Assembly (NCBI GenBank): GCA_035873375.1
Contig: JAYWMQ010000043.1
Span: forward strand, 67,757-131,756
Origin: Nitrospirota bacterium
Lineage (GTDB): Bacteria > Nitrospirota > Thermodesulfovibrionia > Thermodesulfovibrionales > JdFR-85
DNA: 64,000 nt
Direction: 5' to 3'
The first letter of the stretch is position 1; each line of letters begins with the position of its first letter. Below, one piece after another: positions 23,142 through 54,145 of the stretch. Under the pieces are notes generated by a model that saw nothing but the letters and a program-made list of their open reading frames with translations, did not search any database and was not told where the DNA came from. The position numbers and the translations under genes were made by a program.

Positions 23142-23143
23142 TT

Positions 23144-28984: not shown

Positions 28985-30502
28985 TTATTTGCTTCCCGTC
29001 CATTTTTTTATGAGTGTAGCAGCCTGTTGGGGATTGTTTCTGGCCCATTCAACTATCTCGTCCCGGGGTATCTCCCTGAGAGCCGGTTTCCCCTCGAGTT
29101 CCGGTGTGAGGGTCTGGGTGGGGGATGATGGAGGAGGAGTGGATTGCTGTTTGAGATAGGCAAGCAGAGGTCTTATGAGGAACAGTAAGACAAGGATCGA
29201 CAGTATAAGTATTGTGCCGTAACGTGCTGCCGGCATAATGTATTTTGTATAATCCACCTGCTCCGGTGTTTCAAGGACCTCCGGTTGTGCATGAAAGGGC
29301 ATATTTATAACCTTCACCTCGTCACCCCTCTCCTCTGAATATCCTACGGTCTTCTTGATAATCTCTTCGTAACTCTTAAGGTCCTCTTCTGACCGGGCCA
29401 CATATTTTATCTCCCCTGATTTCTCGTCCTTAAGGTATGTTCCGTCGACCAGAACTGCAACCGTCAGGCGTTTTATTGTCCCTGTGGGTTTTATAACATG
29501 ACTTACAGTCTTGCTGATTTCATAGTTTACTGTTTCCGTCTGTTTTCTCAATCCCGTTTTGTTGGCAGCGGACCTTCCAACACGTTTGTTGGGCAGGTTT
29601 GACTGTACCCCCGGCACCCCGGCAACCATCCCTCCGGTCTTTTGTTCCGTTAATTTTTGCTGACTTCTGACAACCTGTCCATCAGGGTCATAGGTCTCCT
29701 GAGTCTCTTCCGTCCTTGTAAAGTCTATGCTCATACTCGCCTTTGCCTTTACCTTGTCCTTGCCCACAACGGGTTCGATGATGCTGATAATTCTCTTCTC
29801 CATGTCCATCTCAAGCCCTTTTTGGTAATCACGCTGGGTATTGTTAATCTGAAGGCCTTCGTCCTCTTCGGTGGTGAGAACGTTGCCCCTGTTGTCCACA
29901 ATAGTTACGTTGTTCGGAGTGAGCGATTCCACGCTGCCTGAAACAAGGTGTACAATTCCCCGAATCTGAGACCTGCTCAAAGTTACACCGGGACGGAGCT
30001 TGAGTAGGACAGATGCCTTTGGTTGCTCGTCTGTGCTGGTAAATATTGATCTTTCCGGCATGGAGAGGTGCACCCTGCAGTCGGAGACCTCCTGCAGAGA
30101 CCGTATGGTCCTTGAGAGCTCTCCCTGCAAGGCCCTTTTCAGGTTCACCTTCTGGACAAATTCGGTTGTGCCGAGCCCCGTTTTATCAAATATCTCGTAT
30201 CCCATGCTTCCACCCTGAGGTAACCCCATGGCAGCGAGCTGGATCCTCACTTCGTAAACCTTGTCGGAGGGTACAAGGATGCCTGAGGGGGTTGTCTTGT
30301 AAGGTATCTTCATCTCCTTCAGTTTTTGCACCATGAGTCCGGCATCCTCTGCCCGGAGGTTTGAATAAAGCATCTGGTACTCTGGTTTTTGTGCCCATGT
30401 GATCAGTAGCACTATTGAGGCAATTGTGAGTACAAGGAGGATGGACAATGTAATCTTCCTCTTTGTATCCCACTTGTTGACAATATCCAGTATATTCGCC
30501 AT
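28985..30502 (-). CDS. fliF: Flagellar MS-ring protein FliF
   Basis: 505 aa. N-terminal TM, YscJ/FliF domain (LQGELSRTI..., RVHLSMPE), C-terminal TM. Confidence 0.92.
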   Translation of the reverse strand: MANILDIVNKWDTKRKITLSILLVLTIASIVLLITWAQKPEYQMLYSNLRAEDAGLMVQKLKEMKIPYKTTPSGILVPSDKVYEVRIQLAAMGLPQGGSMGYEIFDKTGLGTTEFVQKVNLKRALQGELSRTIRSLQEVSDCRVHLSMPERSIFTSTDEQPKASVLLKLRPGVTLSRSQIRGIVHLVSGSVESLTPNNVTIVDNRGNVLTTEEDEGLQINNTQRDYQKGLEMDMEKRIISIIEPVVGKDKVKAKASMSIDFTRTEETQETYDPDGQVVRSQQKLTEQKTGGMVAGVPGVQSNLPNKRVGRSAANKTGLRKQTETVNYEISKTVSHVIKPTGTIKRLTVAVLVDGTYLKDEKSGEIKYVARSEEDLKSYEEIIKKTVGYSEERGDEVKVINMPFHAQPEVLETPEQVDYTKYIMPAARYGTILILSILVLLFLIRPLLAYLKQQSTPPPSSPTQTLTPELEGKPALREIPRDEIVEWARNNPQQAATLIKKWTGSK

Positions 30503-30507
30503 GTATC

Positions 30508-30819
30508 TCAGACCTGCATCCGCATTATCTCTTCATAGGCTGTCACAAGCTTGTTTCTCACCTCGAGCATCACCTGAAAAGAGAGATCAGCCTTTTGCAT
30601 GGCAACCATGGTTTCGACTATGTCTCCTCCTCCATTGCCGATCTCTGCAATTGCCTTCTCCGTCTCTTTCTGCAGGGAGGCCACCTTCCCGATGGTCTCA
30701 TCAAGAAGGATTTCAAAACTCCCTCCGGTCTTGTCTTCGCCGGAAGGTTTAAGATTTCCTGCTATATTGCCTATTCCTTCCGCCCCCGGGGGGCTTCCGT
30801 TGACTGGATTAACTGACAT
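30508..30819 (-). CDS. fliE: Flagellar hook-basal body complex protein FliE
   Basis: 103 aa. C-terminal ADLSFQVMLEVRNKLVTAYEEIMRMQV. Confidence 0.85.
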   Translation of the reverse strand: MSVNPVNGSPPGAEGIGNIAGNLKPSGEDKTGGSFEILLDETIGKVASLQKETEKAIAEIGNGGGDIVETMVAMQKADLSFQVMLEVRNKLVTAYEEIMRMQV

Positions 30820-30857
30820 TTTTTATACCTCCGGATTCATCATTCATTGTTAGACGC

Positions 30858-31265
30858 TTATCTCCCCAATTCAAGTGCCTTCAGATACATTGATTTTGTT
30901 ATGTTGAAGGCATTTACATTAGCTTCATACACCCTCGTTGCCATCATCATGTTAACCATCTCCTCAATCAGGTTTATATCAGGCATAAGCACATAGCCCT
31001 TATCATCTGCATCCGGGTGGCTGGGGTCGTAAACTGCCTTGGGCGGCGTGTTGGAGGTCACAACATCGGATATCCCGACACCTTCGAGCCTTCCCTCCTC
31101 ATCAAGCATGTAGGAGCTGAAGACCACATCCCTCCTCCTGTAAGGACCACCCTCGGGTGTTCTTGTGGTGTTCAGATTTGCCATATTGGAGGCAATGGTA
31201 TTCATTCTTTGCTTCTGTGCAACGAGTGCTGATGCACTCACATCAAATGCCTTCAGGATATTCAT
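30858..31265 (-). CDS. flgC: Flagellar basal-body rod protein FlgC
   Basis: 135 aa. SASALVAQKQRMNTIASNMANLNTT...; EEMVNMMMATRVYEANV. Confidence 0.93.
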   Translation of the reverse strand: MNILKAFDVSASALVAQKQRMNTIASNMANLNTTRTPEGGPYRRRDVVFSSYMLDEEGRLEGVGISDVVTSNTPPKAVYDPSHPDADDKGYVLMPDINLIEEMVNMMMATRVYEANVNAFNITKSMYLKALELGR

Positions 31266-31268
31266 GGT

Positions 31269-31637
31269 CTACCTCCCGCTAATAAGATTTCTATACATTT
31301 TAAACCTGTCATTGATAAGTCTAAGGGTCGTCTGGTAGAGGAGGGCGTTTTCAGTAATCTTTGCCATCTCGACATCCTCCTCTACATTATTTCCGTCAAG
31401 CCATGGAGATTCGGTATCCATCGTCAGCTCGGTATCCCCCCTGATCTCAAGTGCCCTGATGTGGGTAGGAGATGTGTTTTTAAGCCTCAGCCTCTCCTCG
31501 TCAAAAACGGACTCGAATTTTATGTCCTTAGCCCTGTACTGCGGTGTGTCGCTGTTTGCGAGATTGCTCAGGAGTACACTGTGCCTCTGCATGGTGAACT
31601 TTATCATCTCCTCAAGTCTCTTAAGTGTGAAGTCCAT
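31269..31637 (-). CDS. flgB: Flagellar basal-body rod protein FlgB
   Basis: 122 aa. RHSVLLSNLANSDTPQYRAKD; first gene of the operon. Confidence 0.9.
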   Translation of the reverse strand: MDFTLKRLEEMIKFTMQRHSVLLSNLANSDTPQYRAKDIKFESVFDEERLRLKNTSPTHIRALEIRGDTELTMDTESPWLDGNNVEEDVEMAKITENALLYQTTLRLINDRFKMYRNLISGR

Positions 31638-31671
31638 AGTAACCTCCTGTTATCTTTAACCTGATTAGAGC

Positions 31672-31687
31672 AGCAAGTTTCATGCCG
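31672..31687 (-). promoter_or_regulatory. Sigma-54 (-24/-12) promoter of the flgB operon
   Basis: The minus strand reads CGGCATGAAACTTGCT, against consensus TGGCACG-N4-TTGCW, with exact GG/GC spacing. It lies about 35 nt upstream of the flgB ATG. Confidence 0.65.
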
Positions 31688-31774
31688 TGGCAATTATCCT
31701 TTGCTCTACGTTATCTCTGTGTCAGGGTAGAGCTGATTTTTACCCGGAGAGGAAATTTTTTCCTCCCTCCGGAA

Positions 31775-33055
31775 TCAGGCATTAAGCCTGTATTCATTCA
31801 GCTTGTTTCTCAATGTCCTGACGGTTATTCCCAGGCACTCTGCCGTCCTTGTCCTGTTTCCGTTGGTTGCCCTGAGTGTTCTGAGTATGAGTTCTTTTTC
31901 CATATTCTTGATGGTCTTGCTGTCCTGTCTGACGTTTCTGCTCTTTTCAATCATAAAGTCCCCGCTCTCTATAAAGTCTGAACGGCTGAGTAGCACTGCC
32001 CTCTGGATAACATTTTCCAGTTCCCGGATGTTTCCCTTCCAGGCCTGGGTATAAAGATAATTAAAGGCATCTTCCGAGAATCCCGAGATGTACTTTCCGT
32101 ATTGAGATGCATGTTTTTTCAGAAAGAATTCTGAAAGAATACGCACATCACCGGTCCGTTCTCTGAGGGGCGGCAGCTCAAGGGGAAAGACGCTTATCCT
32201 GTAGAAGAGATCTTCCCTGAAGTTTCCCTTTTCGACCTCTTCGGCAAGGTCCCTGTTTGTGGTTGTTATCACCCTGATGTTTACGGACAGGGATTTTTTG
32301 CTGCCAATCCTGTCTATCTCCCTTTCCTGCAGGACCCTCAGGAGCTTGGCCTGAAGCGGGAGCGGCATCTCGCCGATTTCATCAAGCAGGAATGTGCCTC
32401 CGTCTGCTATTTCAAATTTTCCAATCTTTTTCTCCAATGCACCTGTGAAGGCGCCTCTCTCATGACCAAAGAGTTCGGATTCAAGCAGGTTTTCGGGTAT
32501 TGCAGCGCAGTTAACGGCAACGAAGGGTTTTTCCCTCCTCAGGCTCTGCCTGTGTATATACCTTGCAATCAGCTCCTTGCCGGTGCCGCTCTCTCCGGTT
32601 ATGAGGATTGTGGTGTCTGTCCTCGCCACCTCGTAAGCAATCCTGAGGAGTCTCTTCATTGACTCATCTTCGGTAATGATCTCGCCATTTGCAGGCCCCG
32701 GCTCAATAAGGCCGGTTATTGCCTGCCTGAGGTTATCAAAAGAGAAGGGTTTCATAAGATAGTCGGAGGCTCCGAGTTTCATGCACTCAACTGCGTTTTC
32801 AACCGTACCAAACCCTGTGATTACAAGGACGGGCAGGGTGGTGGAAAGCTTTCGTACATGTCTGATGAATTCCAGACCATTCATTCCCGGCATCTTCATA
32901 TCCGTTATAACCAGAGAGCAATCATGGTTTTTAAGCACCTCTATTCCCTCAGCAGCCCTTTCTGCTACCATTACATCAAAACCGAACCTCTTTACGGCCT
33001 CTTCAAGGGCGTTTCTCATCTCCGGATCGTCATCAACAACGACAATGGGTTGCAT
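31775..33055 (-). CDS. Sigma-54-dependent response regulator (FleR/FlrC-like)
   Basis: 426 aa. REC (VVDDDPE, ITDMKMPG, KPF), AAA+ [24 protein letters not shown]-terminal Fis-type HTH. Confidence 0.88.
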   Translation of the reverse strand: MQPIVVVDDDPEMRNALEEAVKRFGFDVMVAERAAEGIEVLKNHDCSLVITDMKMPGMNGLEFIRHVRKLSTTLPVLVITGFGTVENAVECMKLGASDYLMKPFSFDNLRQAITGLIEPGPANGEIITEDESMKRLLRIAYEVARTDTTILITGESGTGKELIARYIHRQSLRREKPFVAVNCAAIPENLLESELFGHERGAFTGALEKKIGKFEIADGGTFLLDEIGEMPLPLQAKLLRVLQEREIDRIGSKKSLSVNIRVITTTNRDLAEEVEKGNFREDLFYRISVFPLELPPLRERTGDVRILSEFFLKKHASQYGKYISGFSEDAFNYLYTQAWKGNIRELENVIQRAVLLSRSDFIESGDFMIEKSRNVRQDSKTIKNMEKELILRTLRATNGNRTRTAECLGITVRTLRNKLNEYRLNA

Positions 33056-33067
33056 TATCGGCCTCCA

Positions 33068-34363
33068 TTAACAGGTTTGATGTTTTTGAGTTTTAAGTGT
33101 TTTGAGACGGGATGTGCTCTTTTTCCCGTCTGAATCCCCTGTCCCCTGCCCGCCGGAGTCTTTTTGTAAAAATTGCTCCGGAGACAGGCAGGCCGTACTG
33201 TCCGTCCTGTCTCCGGAGGCTTCGGGGAGGAGGTGCTTATGAGGAAAGCATAGAACGAATACACTGCCTGAACCAGGCAGGCTCTTTGCCCTTATTGTTC
33301 CACCATGGGCCTGCATTATCTTCAGGGATATGGAGAGGCCAAGCCCTGTGCCTTCGTCCCTGGTAGTGAAGAAGGGGTCAAATATCCTCTCTATATGTTC
33401 TGAGGTGATTCCATTGCCGGTGTCGGAGATGTTGAGGTGGAGCCCTTTGCTGTCCGTTTCAGTATATATGGTGAGTATGCCGCCTGCTCCCATTGCCTGG
33501 ACTGCATTAAGCAGGATATTGAGAATTACCTGTTTTACGAGTCCCGAATCTCCGTTTATCGAGGCGTTGGTGATTTGTTTTTCAACGACAATGCCCCGTG
33601 ATTCAATGACGGGCTTGATCAATGCAAGGGCATCGTCTGTTAGTGTCCTTATGTCGCAGGGTGTTGTCTTCGGATTCCGGGGCCGGGCAAAATAGAGCAT
33701 GTTTGAGAGGGAATTATTCAGGTTTCTTACGCCTGTTGAAACACCCATTGCAAGGGATGCATGCGGGGTATCGTCTAATTCCTTGTATAACATTGATGCG
33801 TAAAGTTCGATGCTACACAGCGGATTCCTCAATTCATGAACAATGCTGGCCATCATCTCTCCCATGGCAATGAGTCTCTTGTTCCTTTCCTTCTCTGCTT
33901 CAATCTCTTTTTGGGCGGTTATGTCCCTCAGTAGGATTACAAATCCTATCAACCCGTCTCCGCCGTTGAGCACATCAGAGAGACTTACAAAGAGGTTTTT
34001 CCTTCCCCCTTCTGTCTCTATCTCAATCTCCTGATTGTTCTGATCGATCCGGCTGAAGTTATAACCGTATTCCTCCGGCCTGTGACCTGTTGATGCAGAG
34101 AGGTCCATCATGAGGAGGTCTTCCGCGGCCCTGTTCATCATCAATATCTTTCCGTCACTGTCCAGTACAACTATTGCCTCCCTGATCCCCTGCAGGACGG
34201 AATTGAGAAAGCTGAGAGTCCTCTGAAGTTCTGCGTTTTTTCTTTGTACCTCCTCTGAGAGGTATGTCACCTGTTGCTGGAGATTTTGATAATATTCCCT
34301 CAGCGTTTCCGAGGCCAGGTTAAAGGTCATGAATGCTTCGTTCAGTTTTTTAAGCTCTTCCAT
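33068..34363 (-). CDS. Sensor histidine kinase (PAS-HisKA-HATPase), cytoplasmic
   Basis: 431 aa. H-box SIVHELRNPL; N/G boxes (NAVQAM, DTGNGI, GTGLGLS). A ~60 aa non-conserved C-terminal tail follows. Confidence 0.85.
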   Translation of the reverse strand: MEELKKLNEAFMTFNLASETLREYYQNLQQQVTYLSEEVQRKNAELQRTLSFLNSVLQGIREAIVVLDSDGKILMMNRAAEDLLMMDLSASTGHRPEEYGYNFSRIDQNNQEIEIETEGGRKNLFVSLSDVLNGGDGLIGFVILLRDITAQKEIEAEKERNKRLIAMGEMMASIVHELRNPLCSIELYASMLYKELDDTPHASLAMGVSTGVRNLNNSLSNMLYFARPRNPKTTPCDIRTLTDDALALIKPVIESRGIVVEKQITNASINGDSGLVKQVILNILLNAVQAMGAGGILTIYTETDSKGLHLNISDTGNGITSEHIERIFDPFFTTRDEGTGLGLSISLKIMQAHGGTIRAKSLPGSGSVFVLCFPHKHLLPEASGDRTDSTACLSPEQFLQKDSGGQGTGDSDGKKSTSRLKTLKTQKHQTC

Positions 34364-34364
34364 T

Positions 34365-36164
34365 TCACATCTCCAGGATATGTTTTTTTATTTTCTGCTC
34401 TTTTATCATCACCTTTGCCATAGAGCCATAAAGTCCCTTTTTTTCTGAGAGGCTCTGCATGAGGGTGGCGCTGCTGGTGATCCTGGCAAGCATAAACATT
34501 GCCCGCACATCATCCGGGTTAACCTTCAGGGCAAGGTTAAAGTATTTTGCGGCATTTTTTTTCATTCCTTTAGCTGCAAGTAATTCTCCTGTTTCCGTGT
34601 ATCTGAGAGGTTCCCCGGTTGCCCTGGACATAAATTTATAGTTTTTAATGAAACCCTTTACAGAAGGTGAGCCTTCCTTTACCCTCCAGAGGAGGTCAAT
34701 GTCGTCATTAACAGGTTGGGATATCCTTGTTATTTCGGAATAGGCAAGCTTTTTCTTTCCTTTGAGGTAATCGAGCCAGGCCCTTGCCCTGAGGATTTCA
34801 TCACCCTTGGGTTTCAGCATTTCAAGGCTCGTGACCAGATCTTCCACCCTTTCAACATCCGAAAGGCGGCTGAAGAAGATTGCGAGCTGACTCAGGGACT
34901 TTGCCCTTATTCTCTTGGAGCCATGTTTTATCAGGTATGTGTATACCCTGATAAAGTCACCACCTGAATTCCTGAGCGCCTCTGCAACGTTAAGAAGTGT
35001 ATCTTCTCTCGATGGTGCATAGAGCCATTGTCCACTGTTGTTCCATATTTTCCTGAAGGCCCTTGTATCGTTATCTATACTCTCATTTATCAGGATCTCA
35101 AGCTCATTCAGTGCCGCCTTCATGGGTTTTCTGCCAAACAGTATCTCTCGCAGGTATTTTTCTGCCTGAAGATAATCCTTCCTTTCCCGCATCAATCCGG
35201 CGAGGAGTAAAAGCGCCTCTTCCGACTCCGGAGTGTAGGGATAATCTCGCCGGAGGACCTTGAGGTATTCAATGGCACGGTTTTTCTGGTCTGTTGCTAT
35301 TGATGTCTTACCGAGATTCAGGAGGGCTTGTCTCCTTATTACCCTGTCAGGGGACTCAGATGCCTTTTTGAGGTACATCCCGGCAGATTCCATGTCGTTC
35401 CTCGTATATTCAATCAGTCCAAGCCCGAGGTATGCCCTCTCCCTGAGATAGGTATCCATCAGCAGGTAGAAGAGGGACTTTGCCTGTTCGGTCTTGCCGA
35501 TAATCCTGAGGTTTTCTGCGTAGTAGTAAAGGATGTCCGGATGCTTTTCGATGTAGTCCTTATAACTTATCAGACCGGTATTGTAGAGTTCATGGGCAGC
35601 GCTGAAGAGCCCAAGCCTCTGAAATACCTCTGCCTTGCCGAAGATCGCCTCTGGCGTATCACTCACCTTTCTGAAATAGGCAAGTGCCTCTACGTAATTG
35701 CCTGTCTTCTGGGAGGCCTGGGCATAATTGAGATATGCCCTTTGTATTAGTGTGGAATCAGGGTAGAGGTTTATAAAGAGTCTGAAATTGGAAGCAGCTT
35801 CATAATGGAATCCACTCATCAGGTATGCCACTCCCCGTTCAAAGAGTGCCTCTTCCTTAAGGGTCGTATCCTTTGCTGTTATGTAGGCCCTGTTCAGGTA
35901 CCCGATGGCCTTACGGTGCCTCTTTGCCCCCTCAAGTGCCCTTCCCTTGAGGTAGTAGTAGCGGGGGAGTTCCTTTTTAGAAGGCCTGTATTGGGAGAGT
36001 AGTCTCATGGCCTCATAGTTTCTCCCTTCATCAATTGCCTCAAAAGCCTTTTGTAAGGGTTCCGAGCCGTAAACCTCTGTGCAGGTGAGGGAGAGTGTCA
36101 GGACAACGCCTGCAACAACAACCCACTGAATAATATTTGTTGGGAATATGACGGTTAGCTTCAT
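34365..36164 (-). CDS. Secreted TPR-repeat protein
   Basis: 599 aa. N-terminal signal/TM, then many TPR-like units (AxxYLNxAxxxxxxGNYxEA). Its stop lies 1 nt from the kinase start. Confidence 0.7.
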   Translation of the reverse strand: MKLTVIFPTNIIQWVVVAGVVLTLSLTCTEVYGSEPLQKAFEAIDEGRNYEAMRLLSQYRPSKKELPRYYYLKGRALEGAKRHRKAIGYLNRAYITAKDTTLKEEALFERGVAYLMSGFHYEAASNFRLFINLYPDSTLIQRAYLNYAQASQKTGNYVEALAYFRKVSDTPEAIFGKAEVFQRLGLFSAAHELYNTGLISYKDYIEKHPDILYYYAENLRIIGKTEQAKSLFYLLMDTYLRERAYLGLGLIEYTRNDMESAGMYLKKASESPDRVIRRQALLNLGKTSIATDQKNRAIEYLKVLRRDYPYTPESEEALLLLAGLMRERKDYLQAEKYLREILFGRKPMKAALNELEILINESIDNDTRAFRKIWNNSGQWLYAPSREDTLLNVAEALRNSGGDFIRVYTYLIKHGSKRIRAKSLSQLAIFFSRLSDVERVEDLVTSLEMLKPKGDEILRARAWLDYLKGKKKLAYSEITRISQPVNDDIDLLWRVKEGSPSVKGFIKNYKFMSRATGEPLRYTETGELLAAKGMKKNAAKYFNLALKVNPDDVRAMFMLARITSSATLMQSLSEKKGLYGSMAKVMIKEQKIKKHILEM

Positions 36165-36178
36165 TAGTGGAGAGAAAT

Positions 36179-36194
36179 AGCAACTAATATGCCA
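36179..36194 (-). promoter_or_regulatory. Sigma-54 (-24/-12) promoter upstream of the TPR-kinase-regulator operon
   Basis: The minus strand reads TGGCATATTAGTTGCT with exact consensus spacing. Caveat: it lies only ~15 nt upstream of the annotated ATG 36164. Confidence 0.5.
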
Positions 36195-36248
36195 GAATGT
36201 AACTCTTTGAATATCAAGGAAAAAATAAAAGGCAGGGGGAAGTGGATG

Positions 36249-37658
36249 TTAGACTTTTGACGTTGTTGTGATTCCCTTTTTCTTCATCTTTTCAACAAGG
36301 GTTGTCCTGTTCAGGCCAAGGAGTGTGGCGGCCTTACTCTTTATCCCGTTGGATTTTTCCAGGGCCTCGGTTATGAGTTTTCTTTCGATGGTATCAATGA
36401 TGTTATTGAGGTTTATGCCTTCAGGTGGAAGGGATAAATCCTCAGTAGAATAAATAGAGGGTTTGGGCTTATCAGTAGCAGTAGCAAGGGTTTGAAACCT
36501 TTCCGGCAGGTCATTAATGGTAATGCGCTGCCCGGGGTTGAGTATCGTAAGTCGTTCAATCAGGTTTGCCAGTTCACGGACATTCCCGGGCCATCCGTAT
36601 CTAAGAAGGACATCCATTAACTGTTTTGATATCTCAGGGGATTGCCTCTTCTTTGCTTTTGCATGTTTTTCAAGGAAGTGTTCGATTAAGACCGGTATGT
36701 CTTCTTTCCTGTCCTTCAACGGGGGAATGTGAACGGGTATTACGTTTAATCTGTAATAGAGGTCCTCCCTGAACCTGCCCTCTCTTGTGCGTTCTTCAAG
36801 GTTCCTGTTAGTGGCTGCCAAAATCCTCACGTCGACCTTTATTGTCTTTGTGCTCCCGATTCTTTCAAATTCCCTCTCCTGAAGTACCCGTAACAACTTG
36901 ACCTGCAACGAGGGGTCGAGTTCACCAATCTCATCAAGAAAGAGCGTGCCTCCGCTTGCAAGTTCAAACCTTCCGATGCGCGTGTTTATGGCGCCGGTGA
37001 ATGCCCCCTTTTCATGTCCGAAGAGCTCTGACTCCAGGAGGTCTTTTGGTATGGCTGCACAATTGAGGGGAACAAAATTCTTGCCGGAGCGGTAACTGTT
37101 GTAATGGATTACCTTTGCAATAAGCTCTTTTCCTGTACCGCTCCCACCTGTAATGAGGACAGTGCTGTCCGTATCAGCTATCTTCTCTATCAGGTCATAA
37201 ACCCGCTGCATCTCTGGTGATGAGCCTATAAGACCGTGAAATTCGTAACGCTTCCTGAGTTCTCTCTTGAGCCGGATATTCTCTTTCTTGAGTTTTGCCA
37301 CCTCGAGTGCTTTTTTGATGATGATTCCCAGTTCATCGAGTCTGAAGGGTTTTGTGACGTAATCGAATGCCCCTGCCCTCATGGCTTCAACGGCGTTTTT
37401 TACTGTTCCGTAGGCAGTAATAATGATGCAAGGGGTGTCGGAGTTCGGGGTGTCTTTCATTGCCTTCAGGACATCCATTCCCCCCATTACAGGCATGGAG
37501 AGGTCAAGGAAGATAAGATCAAAGCTCTCTTTCCTTAATCTTTCAAGTCCGTCCAGGCCGTTTTCTTCCAGGGCAACACTGTATTTTTCCGAAATTAAGT
37601 ATTCGTTAAGGACATCTCTTACAGTAATATCGTCTTCTATTACAAGAATACTCTGCAT
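36249..37658 (-). CDS. Sigma-54-dependent response regulator (NtrC/FleQ class)
   Basis: 469 aa. REC (FLDLSMP, KPF), [24 protein letters not shown]-terminal HTH ([18 protein letters not shown]). Confidence 0.9.
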
Positions 37659-46749: not shown

Positions 46750-46840
46750 TTTAAAAAGAAAAATGACCGTCCCACATCGATCGAATTCCCCATCGGCTTT
46801 TGTTAAGCGGTGGTTAAACGATAGTTAAACGCAAACTACA

Positions 46841-46879
46841 AAAGGGCATTGGTTTGCTGTAAACGAACCAATGCCCTTT
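46841..46879 (-). terminator. Rho-independent terminator of the NuoG-like operon (14-bp perfect stem)
   Basis: AAAGGGCATTGGTT-tgctgtaaacg-AACCAATGCCCTTT. On the minus strand it is followed by TTTTGT. Lies 28 nt after the stop at 46907. Confidence 0.75.
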
Positions 46880-46906
46880 CGCGATCCTGTTTGATTTTAA
46901 AACCCC

Positions 46907-49351
46907 TTATGTTTTTGGCTCTATTCTTACCGCTGTCAGATGGGCTGAGCCCTCCGGGGACGCAAATGTCAGGGAATTCACCCTTGCGTGGGCAAAGTGT
47001 ACAGGGACAAAGAGCATTCCTTCGGGTATCTCGTCAGATATACGTGCCTTTATATATACCGAGTCCCTCCTTGATACTATCCTGATGAACTCACCGTCCT
47101 CAACGCTGAACTTGTCAGCATCCTCAGGGCTTATCTGCACAAAGGCATCGGAAAGTACATGGCTGAGGCTCTTTGACATGACAGAGAGGGCACCTGAGTG
47201 CTGCATGATATTGCCTGTCACCAGGACAATAGGGTGCTCCTCATCAGGTCTCTCCTTGAGTTCCCACTCAGGGCTGGCGAATCTCCATTTCTGGGTCCCG
47301 GTATCAACGGGCATTTTGCTTATCTCTTCCTGGATGGTTTTAAGGTCTATGCTTCCAAGGTCCTCTCCCATAAGCCTTGCAAGGTTGCGCAGTATCATCC
47401 AGTCAGCTATGGAATCCCCTGTGGCTGCAACCACCTTTGGTACAGGCTGGGGCAGACCCTCCGAGTTTATAAATGTTCCTTCCTTCTCTGCCCAGCTTGC
47501 AGCAGGCAGGATTACATCAGCTAATTTTGCCGTCTCTGAAATCCTTATGTCCTGAACTATCAGGAGGTCAAGGCCTTTGATCGTCTCTTCAATACGGTCT
47601 GCATCAGGCATGGTGACAAGCGGGTCTTCACCCATGAGATAGAGGGCCTTGAGTGCTCCGGGTTTGTAAAGCATTTCATATAAATCCTTGCCATTGCTCA
47701 GCGGTCTTACACCCATGAGCCAGGCACCGTAGGTGTTTGAGTAATCAGCCGGTATCTGTAATGCCTCGGGGCCCTCTCCCAGGAGCATGAGGAGATTGGC
47801 CGCAGCCCTTACGGTCTCGATACCCTTCTGATTCTCTGCTGCTGCAACAGTCATGGCCAGGAGGCGGCTTTCCGCCATGGTAAACTCTCTTGCCATTTCT
47901 GTAAATTCCTCTTCTTTTATGCCTGTTATCTCTGATACCTTTTTTGGGGTAAAGTCCTTTACCGCTTCCTGAAGTTCATCAAGACCCTCTGTTGTAATAT
48001 CCTTCTTCAGGTGAATTCCTCCGGCCAGTGCATAGTTGATCAGGCCGTTAAGGAAGGCGGTCGAGGTTCCGGGTCTTATCCTCAACCACGCTGACGCACG
48101 TCTTGCAAGCTTTGTCTGCCTCGGTTCAACAATCAACAGGCGTGAGCCCTCAAGTTTTGCCTCGAGGAACTTGAGTCCGAAGATGGGGTGAGTGGAGGTG
48201 ATGTCTGATTCAAGGACGAGTATGACCTCCTTGCCTATGGGGGAGTCGAGCTTTACAGGGTTCAGTTTTATCCCGTAAGTCTCTTCCATGCCTTTTAGCA
48301 CCCAGGCATAGCCGAGCCTTGCAGAGGTGTCCAGGTTGTCGGTGCCTATCACCTCACGCATGAATTTCTGGAGCATGTAATTGTCTTCAAGTGTGGTCCT
48401 TGGTGAACCGATTGCCCCTATGGCCTCCGGGCCGTGTTTTTCCTTTATTGTCTTCAGCTTTTCTGCAACGTAATAGAGTGCCTCCTCCCAGGAAGCCTCC
48501 CTGAATTCCCCGTCCGTCTTAATCAGTGGTGTCTTCAGCCGTGACTCACCATAAATGAAGTCAAAGCCGAACCTCCCCTTTCCACAGAGGTCACCGTTAT
48601 TTACACCCTTACCCTCAACCCCTCTGACCCTCAAAATCTTTCCTTCCCTGAGGTCAAGGGTGAGAGTACAGCCGACTCCGCAGTAGGGGCATATACTGTC
48701 TCGGCTTTCAAGGAACCACGCCCTTGCCCGGTACTTGTAAGGCTTTGCCCCAAGGGCGCCAACAGGGCAGGTATCAATGCACTGGCCGCAGAATTCACAG
48801 TCAAGGGTCTCTTCAAATGCAGGGCTTATCTTTGTCTTGAACCCACGGCCAATCAGGTTTATTGCCCCAACGCCCTGGTGTTCCCAGCAGACCCTTACGC
48901 AGCGGCCGCAAAGTATACACCTGTTGGGATTACGGTCAATCAGGGGGCTTGTTGCCTCTGGATCGTGTTTCCTCTCACCATAGAACCGGCTCTGTGAAGG
49001 ACCGTATTTATATGCAAGGTCCTGGAGGCTGCACTCACCGGCCTTGTCGCATATCGGGCAGTCAAGTGGGTGGTGTACGAGCAGGAGTTCGAGTACGGTT
49101 TTTCTTGCCTTTTGCAGCGCCGGGGTGTCGGTGTGCACAACCATTCCGTTTTCAGCAGGGGAGGAGCATGATGCCATCAGCTTTCTCTGTCCCTCAACCT
49201 CTACGAGGCAGAGTCTGCACCCCCCGTAGGGCTTCAGCCTTCTGTCCCAGCATAGATGGGGTATGTATATGTTGTTCTCCCTTGCCACATCCAGTATTGT
49301 CACGCCTTTTTTGGCCTGGAGTTTTTTGCCGTTAATCGTCAGTTCTATCAT
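46907..49351 (-). CDS. NuoG/FdhA-like Fe-S molybdopterin-oxidoreductase-family subunit
   Basis: 814 aa. N-terminal 2Fe-2S ferredoxin fold (CRLCLVEV), His-ligated and 4Fe-4S cluster motifs (HHPLDCPICDKAGEC, CILCGRCVRVC, CGQCIDTCP), MopB and C-terminal molybdopterin-binding barrel. The FDH active-site position reads SARLGY rather than ARV(U/C)H. Confidence 0.85.
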   Translation of the reverse strand: MIELTINGKKLQAKKGVTILDVARENNIYIPHLCWDRRLKPYGGCRLCLVEVEGQRKLMASCSSPAENGMVVHTDTPALQKARKTVLELLLVHHPLDCPICDKAGECSLQDLAYKYGPSQSRFYGERKHDPEATSPLIDRNPNRCILCGRCVRVCWEHQGVGAINLIGRGFKTKISPAFEETLDCEFCGQCIDTCPVGALGAKPYKYRARAWFLESRDSICPYCGVGCTLTLDLREGKILRVRGVEGKGVNNGDLCGKGRFGFDFIYGESRLKTPLIKTDGEFREASWEEALYYVAEKLKTIKEKHGPEAIGAIGSPRTTLEDNYMLQKFMREVIGTDNLDTSARLGYAWVLKGMEETYGIKLNPVKLDSPIGKEVILVLESDITSTHPIFGLKFLEAKLEGSRLLIVEPRQTKLARRASAWLRIRPGTSTAFLNGLINYALAGGIHLKKDITTEGLDELQEAVKDFTPKKVSEITGIKEEEFTEMAREFTMAESRLLAMTVAAAENQKGIETVRAAANLLMLLGEGPEALQIPADYSNTYGAWLMGVRPLSNGKDLYEMLYKPGALKALYLMGEDPLVTMPDADRIEETIKGLDLLIVQDIRISETAKLADVILPAASWAEKEGTFINSEGLPQPVPKVVAATGDSIADWMILRNLARLMGEDLGSIDLKTIQEEISKMPVDTGTQKWRFASPEWELKERPDEEHPIVLVTGNIMQHSGALSVMSKSLSHVLSDAFVQISPEDADKFSVEDGEFIRIVSRRDSVYIKARISDEIPEGMLFVPVHFAHARVNSLTFASPEGSAHLTAVRIEPKT

Positions 49352-49404
49352 CTAATCAAGACCTCCTGAGCAAAGTTTTAAATACGGATTCCTAACCTGC
49401 AGCC

Positions 49405-51252
49405 TTATTCCTTACTCTCAACTGTCGTTTGCATTTCCTCCCCCTTAAACATATCTCTTGGTCCTACCTTGACAGCATTAAATTTACACTTTTCATAGCA
49501 GGTCCTGCATTTGATACAGAGGGCCTGGTTTATCAGATAGGGTTTTTTCTTTTCTCCGGTTATCGCATCCTGGGGGCATGCCCTTGCACAGACGCCGCAG
49601 CCTTTACATGCCTTCGCATCTATGTAGAAGGTTGAGAGATCCCTGCAGACCCCTGCCTTACACCATTTCTGATGTATATGTGATTCGTATTCGTCCTTAA
49701 AATACCGTATTGTGGTGAGTACCGGATTTGGCGCCGTCTGACCAAGCCCGCAGAGCGATGTCTTTATAATATCGCCTGCGAGGTCCTCAAGGAGTCCTAT
49801 ATCATCCTCTTGCCCACTGCCTTCCGTAATCTCAATCAGCTTGTCAAGCATTACCCTCGTCCCTATCCTGCAGGGAGAACATTTGCCGCATGACTCATCT
49901 GCGGTAAACTCAAGGAAGAATTTTGCCACGTTTACCATGCAGTTGTAGTCATCCATTACAACCATTCCACCGGACCCGACAATGGCTCCTGTCTTGACTA
50001 TATCCTCATAGGTTACAGGTGTATCAAGGAGGTGTTCAGGGACACAGCCGCCTGATGGTCCCCCGAGCTGTACTGCCTTGAATTTCCTGCCCTTCTTTAT
50101 TCCACCGCCTATATCGAATATTATTCTCCTCAAAGGGGTGCCCATCGGCACCTCGATCAGTCCGATATTGTTAACCGCCCCTGTAAGCGCAAAGACCTTT
50201 GTCCCGGTTGATTTTTCCGTGCCGAGATTGCGGAACCATCCACCACCGTTAAGGACGATCTGCGGGATATTTGCATAGGTCTCAACATTGTTAAGCACAG
50301 TCGGCTTACCCCACAGGCCCTGATTTACCGGAAAGGGAGGTCTGGGTATGGGCATGCCCCTCTTGCCTTCAAGGGAGCGCATAAGGGCTGTCTCCTCACC
50401 ACACACAAAGGCCCCGGCTCCCTCGTATATCTCTATGTCAAGGCTGAAGTCGGAGTTTAAAATATTGTTACCCAAAAGCCCAAGCTCATTTGCCTGGTCT
50501 ATGGCAAGCTGCAGCCTCTTGACAGCAAGTGGATACTCTGCCCTGACATAAATATAACCCTTTGTTGCCCCGATGGCCTTTGCCGCTACTATCATCCCCT
50601 CAAGCACAACATGCGGGTCGGCCTCCATGATACTGCGGTCCATAAATGCTCCGGGGTCGCCCTCGTCACCATTACAGAGTATGTACTTCTGATCTCCCCT
50701 GGCCATGGAACATAGTTCCCACTTGAGTCCTGTTGGAAAACCTGCGCCGCCGCGTCCCCTGAGGCCTGAATCTTTCAGCTCCTTTATTATCTGCTCCGGT
50801 GTCATCTCCGTCAGGGCCTTTGCAGCCGCCATATATCCATCCCTTGCAATATAGTCTTCGATGTTTTCGGGATCAATAAGGCCCTTGTTTCTGAGGGCCC
50901 TCAATACCTGATACTTGAAGAAGGGTATTTCATTCATGGAAGGGACGGTTGTCTTTTTCAGGGGCTCATGGTACATGAATTTTTCAACAGGCCTGCCTTT
51001 AAGGAAATGCTCTTCTACTAAATAAGGTATATCTTCGGGCTTGAGCTTTTCATAAAAAATCTCGTCGGGGTGTACTATAAGGATCGGCCCCTGTGCACAG
51101 AAGCCGTTACAGCCTGTGAGTGTTATTGATATTTCATCTTCCATCTTCCTCTTCTTGAGTTCCTCAATCAGGGCATCCCTGACCTTCAGGCTTCCGGTTG
51201 CTATACATCCCGTTCCTCCGCACAACATCACGTTTACCCTGTATCTTTCCAT
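49405..51252 (-). CDS. NuoF/HndC-like NAD(P)H-FMN subunit with N-terminal thioredoxin-like 2Fe-2S and C-terminal 2x[4Fe-4S]
   Basis: 615 aa. GRGGAGFPTGLKW, GAGAFVCGEETAL, SCGKCSPCR, CKGCGVCARACP, CIKCRTCYEKC. Confidence 0.9.
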   Translation of the reverse strand: MERYRVNVMLCGGTGCIATGSLKVRDALIEELKKRKMEDEISITLTGCNGFCAQGPILIVHPDEIFYEKLKPEDIPYLVEEHFLKGRPVEKFMYHEPLKKTTVPSMNEIPFFKYQVLRALRNKGLIDPENIEDYIARDGYMAAAKALTEMTPEQIIKELKDSGLRGRGGAGFPTGLKWELCSMARGDQKYILCNGDEGDPGAFMDRSIMEADPHVVLEGMIVAAKAIGATKGYIYVRAEYPLAVKRLQLAIDQANELGLLGNNILNSDFSLDIEIYEGAGAFVCGEETALMRSLEGKRGMPIPRPPFPVNQGLWGKPTVLNNVETYANIPQIVLNGGGWFRNLGTEKSTGTKVFALTGAVNNIGLIEVPMGTPLRRIIFDIGGGIKKGRKFKAVQLGGPSGGCVPEHLLDTPVTYEDIVKTGAIVGSGGMVVMDDYNCMVNVAKFFLEFTADESCGKCSPCRIGTRVMLDKLIEITEGSGQEDDIGLLEDLAGDIIKTSLCGLGQTAPNPVLTTIRYFKDEYESHIHQKWCKAGVCRDLSTFYIDAKACKGCGVCARACPQDAITGEKKKPYLINQALCIKCRTCYEKCKFNAVKVGPRDMFKGEEMQTTVESKE

Positions 51253-51280
51253 CTATGGTACCTCCGTCTCCATTATCGTT

Positions 51281-51301
51281 ATACGAAATACGAAAAATAC
51301 T
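51281..51301. repeat. Heptamer array (ATACGAA-like x3) in an intergenic spacer
   Basis: atacgaa atacgaa aaatact, between the HndB-like and NuoF-like genes. Confidence 0.6.
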
Positions 51302-51309
51302 GCAAAAAA

Positions 51310-51693
51310 CTAATAGGATGTCTCGCATCCCCTTACGAGAGCCAGGTCTTCCACGACCTTTCCTCCGAGGATATGTTCAGTAACTATCTTTCTTGTCTTC
51401 TCTTCATTGAGGTCACAGTATTTTACAGGAGGTTCATCCAGAATCTGAACCGTGATCATCGGTTCACGGCTGCAAAGCCCTGCACAGCCGGAGGTGTTTA
51501 CAGCCACATCTGTGGCCCCGCTCTTCTCTAACTCTTCAAGTATAACGTTCATTATCTCTCTTGCCCCTGCTGCAAGACCGCAGGTGCCCATATGAACTGT
51601 AACCCTTGCCCTGAAAGCCCCTTCCCTGAGGGCTGTTTTTGCCTTGTATTCTTCTTTAATCTTTTTTAGATCTTCTACCGTAAGTTTTGCCAT
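51310..51693 (-). CDS. HndB-like thioredoxin-fold (2Fe-2S) ferredoxin
   Basis: 127 aa. HMGTCGLAAGA ... TSGCAGLCSREP. Confidence 0.75.
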   Translation of the reverse strand: MAKLTVEDLKKIKEEYKAKTALREGAFRARVTVHMGTCGLAAGAREIMNVILEELEKSGATDVAVNTSGCAGLCSREPMITVQILDEPPVKYCDLNEEKTRKIVTEHILGGKVVEDLALVRGCETSY

Positions 51694-51861
51694 TGTGCGG
51701 CCTCCTTTTTGATCATTAAGCTAAAGGATGAAGGTCTTTCTCACGACACCCTCTCTATCTGTCATTCCGGCAGTTCTTAAGCCGGAATCCAGTGTTTTCA
51801 ATGCTTTCCGGATACCGGATCAAGTCCGGCATGACGACAAAAAGACATTTATACACAGACA

Positions 51862-52725
51862 CTAATTATATTGTTTTATTGTCTCAGCTACCTTGACAGG
51901 GTCAACACTCCCATATATGTCGTGGTCGACAACCACAACAGGAGCGAGTCCGCAGGCACCGAGACACCGTATAGTCTCAAGGGAGAACTTTTTGTCTTCC
52001 GTGATCCCCCCCTCGTCAATCCCGAGGTATTCCTTTACTTTCTCAAGTATCTCAGCGGCCCTTTTCACATAACAGGCGGTGCCGAGACAGACCCTTACGT
52101 TGTGTTTTCCTTTGGGTTTCATGGTAAATAATGAATAGAAAGAGACGACCGCATGCACCTCGCTGACGGGGAGGTTGAGTTCTTTAGCTATGATACGCTG
52201 TACAGCAGGGGGCAGATATCCGAGTACCCCCTGTACCTTTTGCAGGACAGGGATTAACGCCCCGGGTTTGGTTTTGTACTTCTCTATAACCTCCATTATG
52301 TCCTTCAGTTTTGTCTCTATATCTTCTTCCGCCTCAGACCTTTCTTTTCCCGAAGTTGCCTTTACGGTAGCGATGGCCTTTTCAGTTACATTAATCAGAA
52401 GCTGGGGAGAGAAGGGCTTTGGCAGATAATCTATGATACCGAGCTCAAGGGCGTCTTTTATGCTTTCCTGGGAGGGATAACCTGTGATAACGACTATACC
52501 CGTTCCAGGGCTGGTCTTCCTTATCCAGCGTATTAACTCTATTCCGTCTACCTCGGGCATCTTGAGGTCGGTAATAACGAGGTCAAAGTCCCCGTTTTTT
52601 ATCATATCCATGGCCTCGCTGGCCCTAGTGGCACCCTGGACACTGTATCCCTCCGGAGCGAGTATCCTCTCGCAGCTTTTTATAACAACCGTCTCATCGT
52701 CTACTACCAAGACACTCCCCGCCAT
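51862..52725 (-). CDS. Fusion of a CheY-like receiver domain with a NuoE/HndA-type 2Fe-2S subunit
   Basis: 287 aa. REC: VVDDE, ITDLKMP (phospho-acceptor Asp), VVITGY, LPKPF. NuoE: LIPVLQKVQ...VSFYSLF...VRVCLGTAC...IRCLGACGLAP, with all four cluster Cys. Confidence 0.85.
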   Translation of the reverse strand: MAGSVLVVDDETVVIKSCERILAPEGYSVQGATRASEAMDMIKNGDFDLVITDLKMPEVDGIELIRWIRKTSPGTGIVVITGYPSQESIKDALELGIIDYLPKPFSPQLLINVTEKAIATVKATSGKERSEAEEDIETKLKDIMEVIEKYKTKPGALIPVLQKVQGVLGYLPPAVQRIIAKELNLPVSEVHAVVSFYSLFTMKPKGKHNVRVCLGTACYVKRAAEILEKVKEYLGIDEGGITEDKKFSLETIRCLGACGLAPVVVVDHDIYGSVDPVKVAETIKQYN

Positions 52726-52825
52726 AGAATAACCTCCATAATATAATTTTTATCGAGTTAATGAATTTGTTCACCTGCTTTGCATAATCCTGACAGGATA
52801 ATCAAAGCAAGGCAAAATCATCAGT

Positions 52826-53587
52826 TTACATTTCCAGTGGTATCACCTTTGCAAGCCATACAAGCCATCCCTCCGAGAGGTGTTCCTTGAGAAGGGAACA
52901 GATGATGTCATTGGCCTTCCCGTTGGTCTCTTTTATCTCTGCGGTCATTGGTGAGGCTATATCCACAATCTTTCCCGAGCCGGTAAGCAGCCTGGCAAAT
53001 GGTTCTCCTGCCTTCACCTTGTCTACCTTCAGGTAATCGACATAAAGCATCTCTCCTGCGGCCATCTCGTATCTCAGGTCATAGCCTATCTCCCAGAGTC
53101 CTGTCTTTGTCGGCCTTGCCCATACACCTTCCTTATAAAATATTACGGGATTTTCCTTGTCCCGCAGAGGCACCAGGTAATCCCGGAACTCATCTATATA
53201 AGCCTGTCTCAGGATCCATCCCCTCTTGTCAAATACCTTCCTGGCAACATTTAACATGAAATCAGGAGTGAAAGGTTTTTCAATATACTCAAAGGCCCCA
53301 AGCCTTATGGATTCCTTTGCATCTTCCAGTGTGGGGTATCCGGTAATAACAACAATATCGGTATCTGGCTGAATGACTCGTGCCTCACGCAGGACCTCAA
53401 TCCCTGATATGTCCGGCAGGCGTATATCGGTAATCAGGATGTCGTATTCCTCCTTCTCAAGCTGTCTCAGTGCATCCTCACCCTTGCCCACTGCAGTGAT
53501 ATTGTAACCCTCCGCCCCGAGTATCCTCTTGCAGCTAAGCGTCACAACAGGATCGTCATCAAGTACAAGTATCTTTCCTTTATCCAT
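52826..53587 (-). CDS. Fusion of a CheY-like receiver domain with a glycine-cleavage-H-like (lipoyl-fold) domain
   Basis: 253 aa. REC: VLDDDP, ITDIRLP, VVITGY, IEKPF. C-terminus: GVWARPTKTGLWEIGYDLRY..MLYVDYLKVDKVKAGEPFARLLTGSGKIVDIASPMTAEIKETN...EGWLVWL parallels the GcvH pattern. Confidence 0.7.
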   Translation of the reverse strand: MDKGKILVLDDDPVVTLSCKRILGAEGYNITAVGKGEDALRQLEKEEYDILITDIRLPDISGIEVLREARVIQPDTDIVVITGYPTLEDAKESIRLGAFEYIEKPFTPDFMLNVARKVFDKRGWILRQAYIDEFRDYLVPLRDKENPVIFYKEGVWARPTKTGLWEIGYDLRYEMAAGEMLYVDYLKVDKVKAGEPFARLLTGSGKIVDIASPMTAEIKETNGKANDIICSLLKEHLSEGWLVWLAKVIPLEM

Positions 53588-53618
53588 GGTTACCTCCTTT
53601 CATTACAAGACAGGTTAT

Positions 53619-53634
53619 AGCAATTCCCTTGCCA
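53619..53634 (-). promoter_or_regulatory. Sigma-54 (-24/-12) promoter of the REC/Nuo-like operon
   Basis: The minus strand reads TGGCAAGGGAATTGCT with exact consensus spacing, about 33 nt upstream of ATG 53587, with GGAGG between. Confidence 0.6.
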
Positions 53635-53724: not shown

Positions 53725-53774
53725 TTCAGTGTATAGAAAATATATACTCTTACCATTATATATCATACACTGAA
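53725..53774. promoter_or_regulatory. 10-bp perfect inverted repeat, candidate enhancer (UAS) for the sigma-54 promoter
   Basis: TTCAGTGTAT-N30-ATACACTGAA, located 90-155 nt upstream of the -24/-12 element on the minus strand. Confidence 0.35.
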
Positions 53775-54145
53775 ATTCGTCCATCCCTCACTGAACGGAG
53801 GATTTGTTTTAAAGGTATTGACCATGGTTGATAATGCTTCTGAATAAGTCTCTTCACATGTCTTAACTGTAGACCCTGCGTATTATCGAGGATAAGACAA
53901 AATCCGGTTTATTCTTGAGACACCAAACAGAAATCATCCGGAAACAGCATATGGGATAAACCGCAGGTGCAACGGGCATTTCAAGGCTACAGGACCATAG
54001 CCGGTAGAACTCAAATGTAGAGTTGAATCTTGAAAAGTGTTCCGGGGTTTGCAGTGTTGAAAATTTTTTATCTTTTGTGCTAATCTTTATATATGCTTGT
54101 AAGAAGTAAATCCCTATCATTTACCATTCAATTAAAGGGCACATC

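Follow-up and report, generated by a model that had tools for sequence, protein, structure and literature searches.

Minus-strand positions 53634→46826 of a 64-kb (64,000-nucleotide) stretch of a Nitrospirota contig, called the window here, carry a five-gene operon that is a real, widespread and uncharacterised variant within a known enzyme family. At the sequence level it is an operon for a Bfu-family (HydABC/Hnd/Stn-like) enzyme that probably bifurcates electrons, and two of its five products begin with a response-regulator receiver (REC) domain: a REC-GcvH-like protein and a fusion of REC to a NuoE/HydC-type subunit. An HndB-like protein, a NuoF/HydB-type flavoprotein and a large NuoG/FdsA-like subunit complete the unit. 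Anaerobes rely on flavin/iron-sulfur (Fe-S) bifurcation by HydABC-type (Bfu) enzymes as a central means of energy coupling, and the mechanism proposed for these enzymes depends on movement of the HydC/NuoE-like [2Fe-2S] domain; we know of no characterised post-translational regulator of any Bfu enzyme. In this operon an intact receiver is fused exactly to that gate subunit, and a second receiver protein is added. We give about an even chance to the overall picture that these features suggest, a soluble Bfu-family complex under two levels of control.

Placement in the Bfu family was based on domain calls from Pfam, family cut-offs from NCBIfam, comparison with proteins of known structure (solved matches, below) and sets of distinct orthologous sequences. 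BfuB subunits have been defined by a NuoF flavin mononucleotide (FMN)/NADH domain with an SLBB domain, a [4Fe-4S] cluster and a C-terminal 2x[4Fe-4S] domain (Schut et al. 2022, PMC9304861). The flavoprotein matches 2Fe-2S_thioredx at its N-terminus, then Complex1_51K, SLBB, NADH_4Fe-4S and two C-terminal Fer4 domains, and its layout is thus an N-terminal [2Fe-2S] cluster, an FMN/NADH domain, a [4Fe-4S] cluster and a C-terminal 2x[4Fe-4S] ferredoxin domain, with the extra clusters common to all true bifurcating members (PMC9304861). Solved bifurcating B subunits (HydB of the A. woodii/T. kivui type, NiFe-HydB, NfnB, StnB and T. maritima HydB) align to it end to end at 716-836 bits, 836 bits being the full-length score against HydB 7q4v_B, whereas non-bifurcating NuoF/FdsB proteins reach 355-404 bits over the central part only. 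Its cluster cysteines are near-invariant in 57 orthologues. An earlier reading of the DNA, made from the sequence alone (the sequence-only reading), had called the complex possibly bifurcating, and these scores strengthen that suggestion.

Two smaller subunits point the same way. The NuoE part of the REC-NuoE fusion is a thioredoxin-fold [2Fe-2S] domain of the kind expected of a Bfu C subunit (PF01257, 2.7e-49), among solved proteins it is closest to HydC/NfnC from bifurcating enzymes, and its four cluster cysteines (Cys213, Cys218, Cys254 and Cys258) are invariant in 68 orthologues. The third gene, read earlier as an HndB-like 2Fe-2S ferredoxin, does encode an HndB-like thioredoxin-like ferredoxin fold (weak Pfam match), but the protein conserves only three cysteines (38, 70 and 74) of the usual four cluster ligands. 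Among solved proteins it is most similar to N-terminal domains from B subunits of the NfnB/StnB type, with which it shares the pattern CG(I/L)AAG...C-x3-C.

The large subunit combines Fer2_4, NADH-G_4Fe-4S_3, Fer4_Nqo3, Molybdop_Fe4S4, Molybdopterin and Molydop_binding domains. All 19 of its cysteines and His94 are invariant in 52 orthologues and would hold one [2Fe-2S] and four [4Fe-4S] clusters. Among proteins of known structure it matches FdsA-type formate dehydrogenases best (410 bits). In a HMMER alignment, DTCARVCH of Rhodobacter capsulatus FdsA corresponds to DTSARLGY and GANP to ESDI, so that the Cys/Sec-His position of formate dehydrogenases is occupied by Gly347-Tyr348, a pair invariant in all 52 orthologues. 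The segment that holds the catalytic Arg in formate dehydrogenases is not alignable and contains no Arg, having Ala or Ser in its place. The NCBIfam formate dehydrogenase alpha model (TIGR01591) scores 466.5 bits, below its cut-off of 666.25, and the NuoG model barely passes (471.8 against 470.05). With the GxNP motif lost (ESD), MGEDP and the C-terminal domain are kept, and a nucleotide or cofactor remnant may persist there. The sequence-only reading's description of this protein as NuoG/FdhA-like holds for its domain set, but formate dehydrogenase was rejected as an identity on the active-site residues and the failed cut-off. Judged by its residues the large subunit is not a formate dehydrogenase, and the operon therefore encodes no recognisable site for a third substrate: the cluster ligands of the A subunit are invariant, whereas its sole candidate substrate site, the FdhF-like domain, lacks catalytic residues. 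The closest described parallel to this dead site is StnC's FdhF-like domain, which is catalytically inactive and mediates tetramerisation (PMC10482914). Surveys by gene order would count this operon as Fdh-Bfu, a likely mis-annotation that the residues correct.

Both receivers appear equipped for phosphorylation. Their Pfam matches are strong (REC, 1.2e-29 in REC-NuoE and 9.5e-27 in the REC-GcvH-like protein), and each keeps the acidic pocket Asp-Asp, the phospho-acceptor Asp, the Thr and the Lys: D9, D10, D53, T81 and K103 are invariant in the 68 REC-NuoE orthologues, and D10, D11, D54, T82 and K104 in 24 orthologues of the REC-GcvH-like protein. Within the window's clade these five residues are invariant in both proteins in sequences down to ~52% identity. 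Both receivers are 39-49% identical to the activator and single-domain receivers found in synteny in relatives. The least conserved part of REC-NuoE is the linker of ~30 residues (~115-143) between its two domains. About 15 clusters at 50% identity among the top 150 matches span both the REC and NuoE domains. Database labels for the operon's proteins are generic, such as 'NAD(P)H-dependent oxidoreductase subunit E' and 'NuoE/CheY-like'. The REC-GcvH-like protein is unusually conserved, at least 70% identical in its 120 best clusters as against at least 60% for REC-NuoE. Two side observations concern unusual forms of the fusion. In a divergent metagenomic lineage (locus L086), REC-NuoE is accompanied by a short A subunit and HdrA/MvhD/HdrBC-like genes, with no FdhA-like subunit. 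In a metagenomic protein of 578 residues (P0241), the REC-NuoE match begins at residue 278; either the REC-GcvH-like and REC-NuoE genes may be joined here, or the gene call may contain a frameshift.

The C-terminal domain of the REC-GcvH-like protein has the barrel-sandwich fold of glycine-cleavage H-proteins. The Pfam match of the window's protein to GCV_H (PF01597) is weak (1.6e-3), and the same family matches all 24 aligned orthologues, at best with 3.3e-7. The AlphaFold model has a mean predicted local distance difference test score (pLDDT) of 68 and is good for the C-terminal domain only (pLDDT ~75-93). With Foldseek that domain matches more than 20 H-protein structures at a template modelling (TM) score of ~0.6 (about 0.63) and a probability of 1.0. 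The earlier label GcvH-like is thus right as to fold but does not extend to lipoate carriage: the position of the lipoyl-lysine, K64 of Escherichia coli GcvH, is occupied by Gly205, which is invariant among the orthologues, and the residue beside it varies (K/Q/A/E/R). A lipoyl-carrier role was ruled out on this ground. The fold would serve some role other than lipoate carriage, most simply that of a docking module. As a sole query the domain retrieved just fragments of the same protein family and no stand-alone relatives.

The transcriptional level of control is suggested by the promoter region. A -24/-12 element, TGGCAAGGGAATTGCT, lies 32 nucleotides 5' of the first ATG at 53587, separated from it by AAAGGAGG. 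In the window the 16-mer has a single exact occurrence, and it appeared in 0 of 100 shuffled sequences. A looser form, TGGC-N7-TTGCW, occurs three times in the window, and its other two sites (25027-25042 and 36179-36194) fall within a flagellar cluster. This cluster, at 21894-37658, encodes FliF, FliG, a FliI-type ATPase, FliK, FlgD, FlgE, two NtrC-type sigma-54 activators and one kinase, and the position of the two sites within it indicates that the host uses sigma-54 promoters of this form. The window's element is of the TGGCAC-N5-TTGCW type with GG-N10-GC spacing. The sigma-54 motif is kept in 28 distinct upstream regions, 40-115 nucleotides 5' of the first gene, with otherwise divergent flanks; when 12 of these regions are aligned, GGCA and TTGC are the sole invariant blocks besides the ribosome-binding site. 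A second conserved block (53727-53783) is found in close relatives when upstream regions are aligned. In it a sigma-70-like site, TGGACG-17-TATAAT, overlaps a palindrome, CAGTGTAT-N30-ATACACTG, 110-160 nucleotides 5' of the sigma-54 site. This block might bind an activator or act as a second or alternative promoter. The palindrome, as TGTAT...ATACA, was rejected as a conserved activator site, its exact form being present in just 6 of the 28 loci that bear the sigma-54 motif; it remains a lead.

The promoter, the five co-directional genes and the strong terminator named in the sequence-only reading were all recovered by motif scan, Pfam and RNA folding (Table 1). Gaps of 100, 168, 57 and 53 nucleotides separate the genes, which we infer to be co-transcribed. 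The terminator hairpin and its U-run fold at -31.9 kcal/mol (z = -5.64), and none of 200 shuffled sequences was equally stable. Two smaller features lie inside the operon. The gap at 51694-51861 is ~90 nucleotides longer than in a relative that is 95-99% identical (L007), and the inverted repeat within it may represent the insertion of a small repeat element. At 51315-51331 the 3' end of the HndB-like gene contains a weak hairpin and T-run that resemble a terminator and could attenuate read-through toward the flavoprotein gene.

Table 1. Features of the receiver-bearing Bfu-type operon, in window coordinates; domain boundaries are given in amino-acid residues (aa).
Feature	Position	Strand	Evidence
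Putative sigma-54 -24/-12 promoter TGGCAAGGGAATTGCT (GG-N10-GC spacing)	53619..53634	-	Motif scan, conservation in relatives
Conserved upstream block: sigma-70-like site and palindrome	53727..53783	-	Promoter scan, alignment
REC-GcvH-like protein, 253 aa: receiver aa 6-113, H-protein-fold domain aa ~130-250	52826..53587	-	Pfam, Foldseek
REC-NuoE/HydC (BfuC) fusion, 287 aa: receiver aa 5-113, linker ~115-143, [2Fe-2S] NuoE domain aa 144-286	51862..52725	-	Pfam
Intergenic gap of 168 nucleotides with imperfect inverted repeat GTCATGCCGGA...GCCGGAATGAC	51694..51861	-	Sequence
HndB-like thioredoxin-fold protein, 127 aa	51310..51693	-	Pfam (weak)
NuoF/HydB-type flavoprotein (BfuB), 615 aa	49405..51252	-	Pfam, full-length scores
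NuoG/FdsA-like subunit (BfuA), 814 aa	46907..49351	-	Pfam
Intrinsic terminator: 17-base-pair hairpin then UUUUGUAGUUUG	46826..46882	-	RNA fold

The REC-GcvH-like gene has a match in 201 species-representative genomes, of which we examined the best 80 loci (locus numbers are preceded by L). Nearly all of these are Nitrospirota, mostly under Thermodesulfovibrionia or unclassified Nitrospirae labels and including Ca. Magnetobacterium, and the window's REC-GcvH-like protein is 99% identical to that of 'Bacterium BMS3Bbin07'. Across the 80 loci the five-gene unit is present wherever the contigs reach far enough, some Magnetobacterium-type loci excepted. Three kinds of upstream region were found. 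In the window's clade the sole conserved feature is the sigma-54 motif, which stands 40-100 nucleotides 5' of the first gene. A second kind has a HAMP kinase and an NtrC-type activator, with or without a single-domain REC, ahead of the sigma-54 motif; the kinase is of HAMP-HisKA-HATPase and the activator of REC-AAA+-HTH_8 architecture, and in six distinct relatives (L002, L075, L079, L082, L084 and L085) kinase and activator lie immediately upstream of the operon. In the third and largest group, 43 loci with at least the last of its genes, a cassette runs co-directionally into the operon, encoding a kinase, a REC, a DRTGG protein, a small GHKL ATPase of 145 residues, a second DRTGG protein, a PHP-family protein and a 183-residue GHKL ATPase (in L036 the genes from the first DRTGG protein to the last ATPase lie at 7351-9881). 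Similar unexplained genes for DRTGG, GHKL ATPase and PHP proteins accompany HydABC operons in Firmicutes, and our literature search on DRTGG/PHP genes with hydrogenases found no paper that explains them. The relatives' HAMP kinase (L036:5405-7027, L084:6227-7807, L002:5469-7055 and 19 further loci) has two membrane segments and a periplasmic loop with CXXCH and CX4CH motifs in 22 of 22 distinct orthologues, together with a weak Pfam match to Mcp40H-20_sensor, the sensor domain of Geobacter-type chemoreceptors; we regard it as a putative c-haem sensor of redox state or of a gas.

Metabolic genes also accompany the cluster in relatives. A complete nuoABCDEF(G) operon is divergently adjacent to the kinase gene in 14 distinct loci (L002:1-5329, L036:460-4970 and 12 others), which links the signalling-plus-Bfu cluster to NADH metabolism. 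In 8 loci an nfnAB-like pair, encoding a PyrK-like protein of 277 residues and a GltD-like protein of 482, sits between the two receiver genes (e.g. L030:10782-13065), and in one locus a GltD-like gene separates the gene for the B subunit from that for the A subunit (L082:16130-17368), a 'split StnC' arrangement.

Several observations weigh against the overall picture. Distant REC-NuoE clades carry degenerate receivers, in which the acceptor Asp has become Tyr (L087:10001-10852) or Glu (P0244) or the acidic pocket is lost (L086:10001-10882), and given such non-phosphorylatable clades the role of the receiver may be mainly structural. In Ca. Magnetobacterium-type loci (L080:8384-9148, L077, L074 and L068) a single-domain REC and the REC-GcvH-like gene are followed by no Bfu genes, in L080 by 10 kb of unrelated genes, and we therefore consider that the adaptor protein can be encoded apart from the enzyme. 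The sigma-70-like site, 120 nucleotides 5' of the sigma-54 site, scores 10/12 in the promoter scan. No conserved catalytic partner was found downstream of the large subunit in the 36 loci with enough sequence, and a plain NADH:ferredoxin reaction would be uphill. In the 64-kb window there is no kinase, activator, DRTGG/PHP/GHKL gene or GltD-like gene linked to the operon. The window's only kinase, in the flagellar cluster, is 28-32% identical to the relatives' syntenic kinase over the C-terminal catalytic half only, and its two sigma-54 activators, in the same cluster, are 40-48% identical to the syntenic activators. The earlier proposal of enhancer-binding-protein control is borne out in part, by the motif in 28 upstream regions and by the HAMP kinase and NtrC-type activator of six relatives, but neither partner is linked to the operon in the window itself. 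Degeneration of the receivers had been named beforehand as a finding that would refute the sequence-only reading. It is not seen in the window's clade, which is fully intact in 68 and 24 orthologues; the distant REC-NuoE clades are degenerate.

The alternatives follow from these points. If the receivers are structural pseudo-receivers or phosphate sinks, control would be transcriptional only and the enzyme constitutively active. The three divergent sequences above, which keep the domain despite its lost residues, fit this reading, as does the buried Asp of MSMEG_2064, a receiver protein of mycobacterial complex I (PMC10068793). We nevertheless think it unlikely, in view of the five residues held invariant in both proteins of the window's clade and of the kinase, single-domain receivers, PHP phosphatase-like gene and GHKL ATPases in synteny. 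The complex might instead be primarily a sensor, a catalytically reduced Bfu-like assembly that reads the NADH/ferredoxin redox state and, via its two receivers together with the DRTGG/GHKL/PHP proteins, signals it to other targets or to gene expression. Such a role would suit the lack of a catalytic third site, the unusual concentration of signalling genes near the relatives' clusters and the higher conservation of the REC-GcvH-like protein than of the redox subunits, for which REC-NuoE is the measure. It is quite improbable all the same: cofactor ligands and the NADH/FMN module are conserved as strongly as in working enzymes, receivers take in signals rather than emit them, and the operon is itself a sigma-54 output in the window's clade.

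Two further alternatives concern the identity of the enzyme. An alternative, regulated NADH-input (N) module docking on a Nuo-type membrane arm is suggested by the 14 relatives with adjacent nuo operons, by the large subunit's narrow pass of the NuoG model and by the Nuo complexes without NuoEFG of cultured Thermodesulfovibrio (PMC5165239). The adjacent nuo operons, however, carry their own canonical NuoE and NuoF (and NuoG in L002), which argues against the Bfu proteins as their missing N-module. The flavoprotein resembles HydB and bears the ferredoxin-domain extensions that typify soluble bifurcating enzymes, the NCBIfam models for NuoF (492 against 558.65) and NuoE (131 against 141) are not reached, and the window holds no nuo genes; we find an N-module very doubtful. 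A plain formate dehydrogenase, NAD+-linked or bifurcating (type 1 Fdh-Bfu), whose receivers are incidental, seems scarcely credible. Its attractions are the FdsA-type best matches with the Molybdopterin and Molydop_binding domains, a gene order that would fall under Fdh-Bfu in the scheme of Schut et al. (PMC9304861), and an fdhD gene downstream of the operon in one Dissulfurispiraceae relative (L087). Yet the large subunit of that relative also has Gly-Tyr, no fdhD was found in the other loci examined, and the replaced Cys/Sec-His and GxNP motifs, the Arg-free segment and the low Fdh-alpha score all stand against it.

For the preferred picture of a soluble, doubly controlled Bfu-type complex, we hypothesize the following course of events. 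The five proteins would assemble into a complex. Homology places the reaction of NAD(H) at the FMN of the flavoprotein, a ferredoxin site in its C-terminal 2x[4Fe-4S] domain, a [2Fe-2S] gate in the NuoE/HydC-like subunit and an Fe-S wire in the large subunit. The gate domain would be mobile, as in HydABC and StnABC, in keeping with the kinetic gate ascribed to StnA/HydC motion (PMC10482914). In the large subunit the dead FdhF-like domain would probably serve as a scaffold or oligomerisation surface as in StnC. A medium-potential third substrate would be supplied in trans, with no site for it encoded in the operon; because GltD/NfnAB-like modules are inserted in some relatives, NADPH-linked (Stn/Nfn-type) redox balancing is our best guess for its nature.

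Control might then act at two levels. At the first, an NtrC-type activator would fire the sigma-54 promoter, the activator probably being phosphorylated by a HAMP kinase in the membrane whose periplasmic sensor is c-haem-like, of the kind encoded beside the operon in relatives. At the second, the kinase would phosphorylate Asp53 of REC-NuoE and Asp54 of the REC-GcvH-like protein, and the receivers would then (hetero)dimerise, or the GcvH-like adaptor would dock, so as to alter where the gate sits, how freely it moves or how the complex is assembled. The complex would toggle between idle and active or between differently assembled states. We offer this second level tentatively: a phosphorylation switch on the mobile [2Fe-2S] gate, with a REC-GcvH-like adaptor and under a c-haem membrane kinase, acting beside sigma-54 control, has in our view clearly less than an even chance of being correct in full.

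With intact receivers on two of its subunits, an energy-coupling enzyme looks, from its genes, to be wired directly to a sensor kinase besides its sigma-54 promoter. In relatives a candidate haem-sensor kinase, and often complex I, is encoded alongside. If the switch exists, the extracytoplasmic redox state could, within seconds, switch NADH/ferredoxin(/NADPH) coupling in the cytoplasm on or off or give it other partners, and bacteria would regulate the coupling of redox pools at the enzyme level through two-component signalling. Phosphorylation of the gate would also give the gating hypothesis a natural experimental handle.

Among known systems, the nearest are the Bfu enzymes themselves, and in line with the sequence-only reading, which did not recognise the operon as a characterised system, our literature search found no description of receiver-fused NuoE/HydC or Bfu subunits. 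The published Bfu survey does not mention receiver domains, and among its 57 BfuB clades it lists 17-18 as unassigned (PMC9304861). With HydABC and NiFe-HydABCSL (7q4v, 7t2r, 8a6t and 7p5h) the operon shares the domains of the B subunit, a HydC-like subunit and a NuoG-like N-terminus of the A subunit; unlike them it has no H-cluster, NiFe module or other catalytic third site, and it has a receiver on its C subunit and a REC-GcvH-like protein as its first gene. StnABC and Nfn-Bfu (Sporomusa ovata, 8oh5; T. sibiricus, 9n5u; 9bov) are similar in their bifurcating B/C core and inactive FdhF-like domain, in the resemblance of the HndB-like protein to the N-terminal domains of NfnB/StnB, and in the GltD/NfnAB-like genes of some relatives. 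They differ in lacking receivers and in having a GltD-like insertion with flavin adenine dinucleotide (FAD) and NADPH sites, which is absent from the 814-residue large subunit and from the window.

The NADP-reducing hydrogenase HndABCD of Desulfovibrio fructosovorans consists of a NuoE-like subunit, a small thioredoxin-like protein, a NuoF-like subunit with extra Fe-S clusters and a large subunit. Its genes are arranged as in the operon, and a Joint Genome Institute (JGI) label 'HndA' appears among the database matches; the operon's large subunit is FdhA/NuoG-like, however, rather than an [FeFe]-hydrogenase, and its NuoE-like subunit has a receiver. FdsABG of R. capsulatus (6tg9) and type 1 Fdh-Bfu have a large subunit of the same domain order (the 410-bit match), but the operon has the invariant Gly-Tyr and has lost GxNP, and FdsB lacks the B2-B5 clusters of the operon's flavoprotein.

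For a receiver in a NuoEFG-related machine, the only described case, and a precedent, is the orphan response regulator MSMEG_2064/Rv3143, a subunit of mycobacterial complex I (PMC10068793, PMC9274095). There too a receiver protein belongs to an NADH-oxidising enzyme, one whose NuoG has a degenerate molybdenum-enzyme-like domain. In mycobacteria the regulator, a protein of its own with a single domain, binds on the membrane-proximal side near NuoB, and its authors call it unique to mycobacteria (PMC10068793), whereas the operon's receiver forms one polypeptide with the NuoE homologue of a predicted soluble Bfu-type complex. The regulatory genes, finally, resemble NtrC-type two-component systems in the GG-N10-GC promoter and in the kinase and activator upstream in relatives. 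They depart from them in having up to three further receivers per cluster (a single-domain REC, the REC-GcvH-like protein and REC-NuoE), which suggests one kinase with branched outputs that include subunits of the enzyme.

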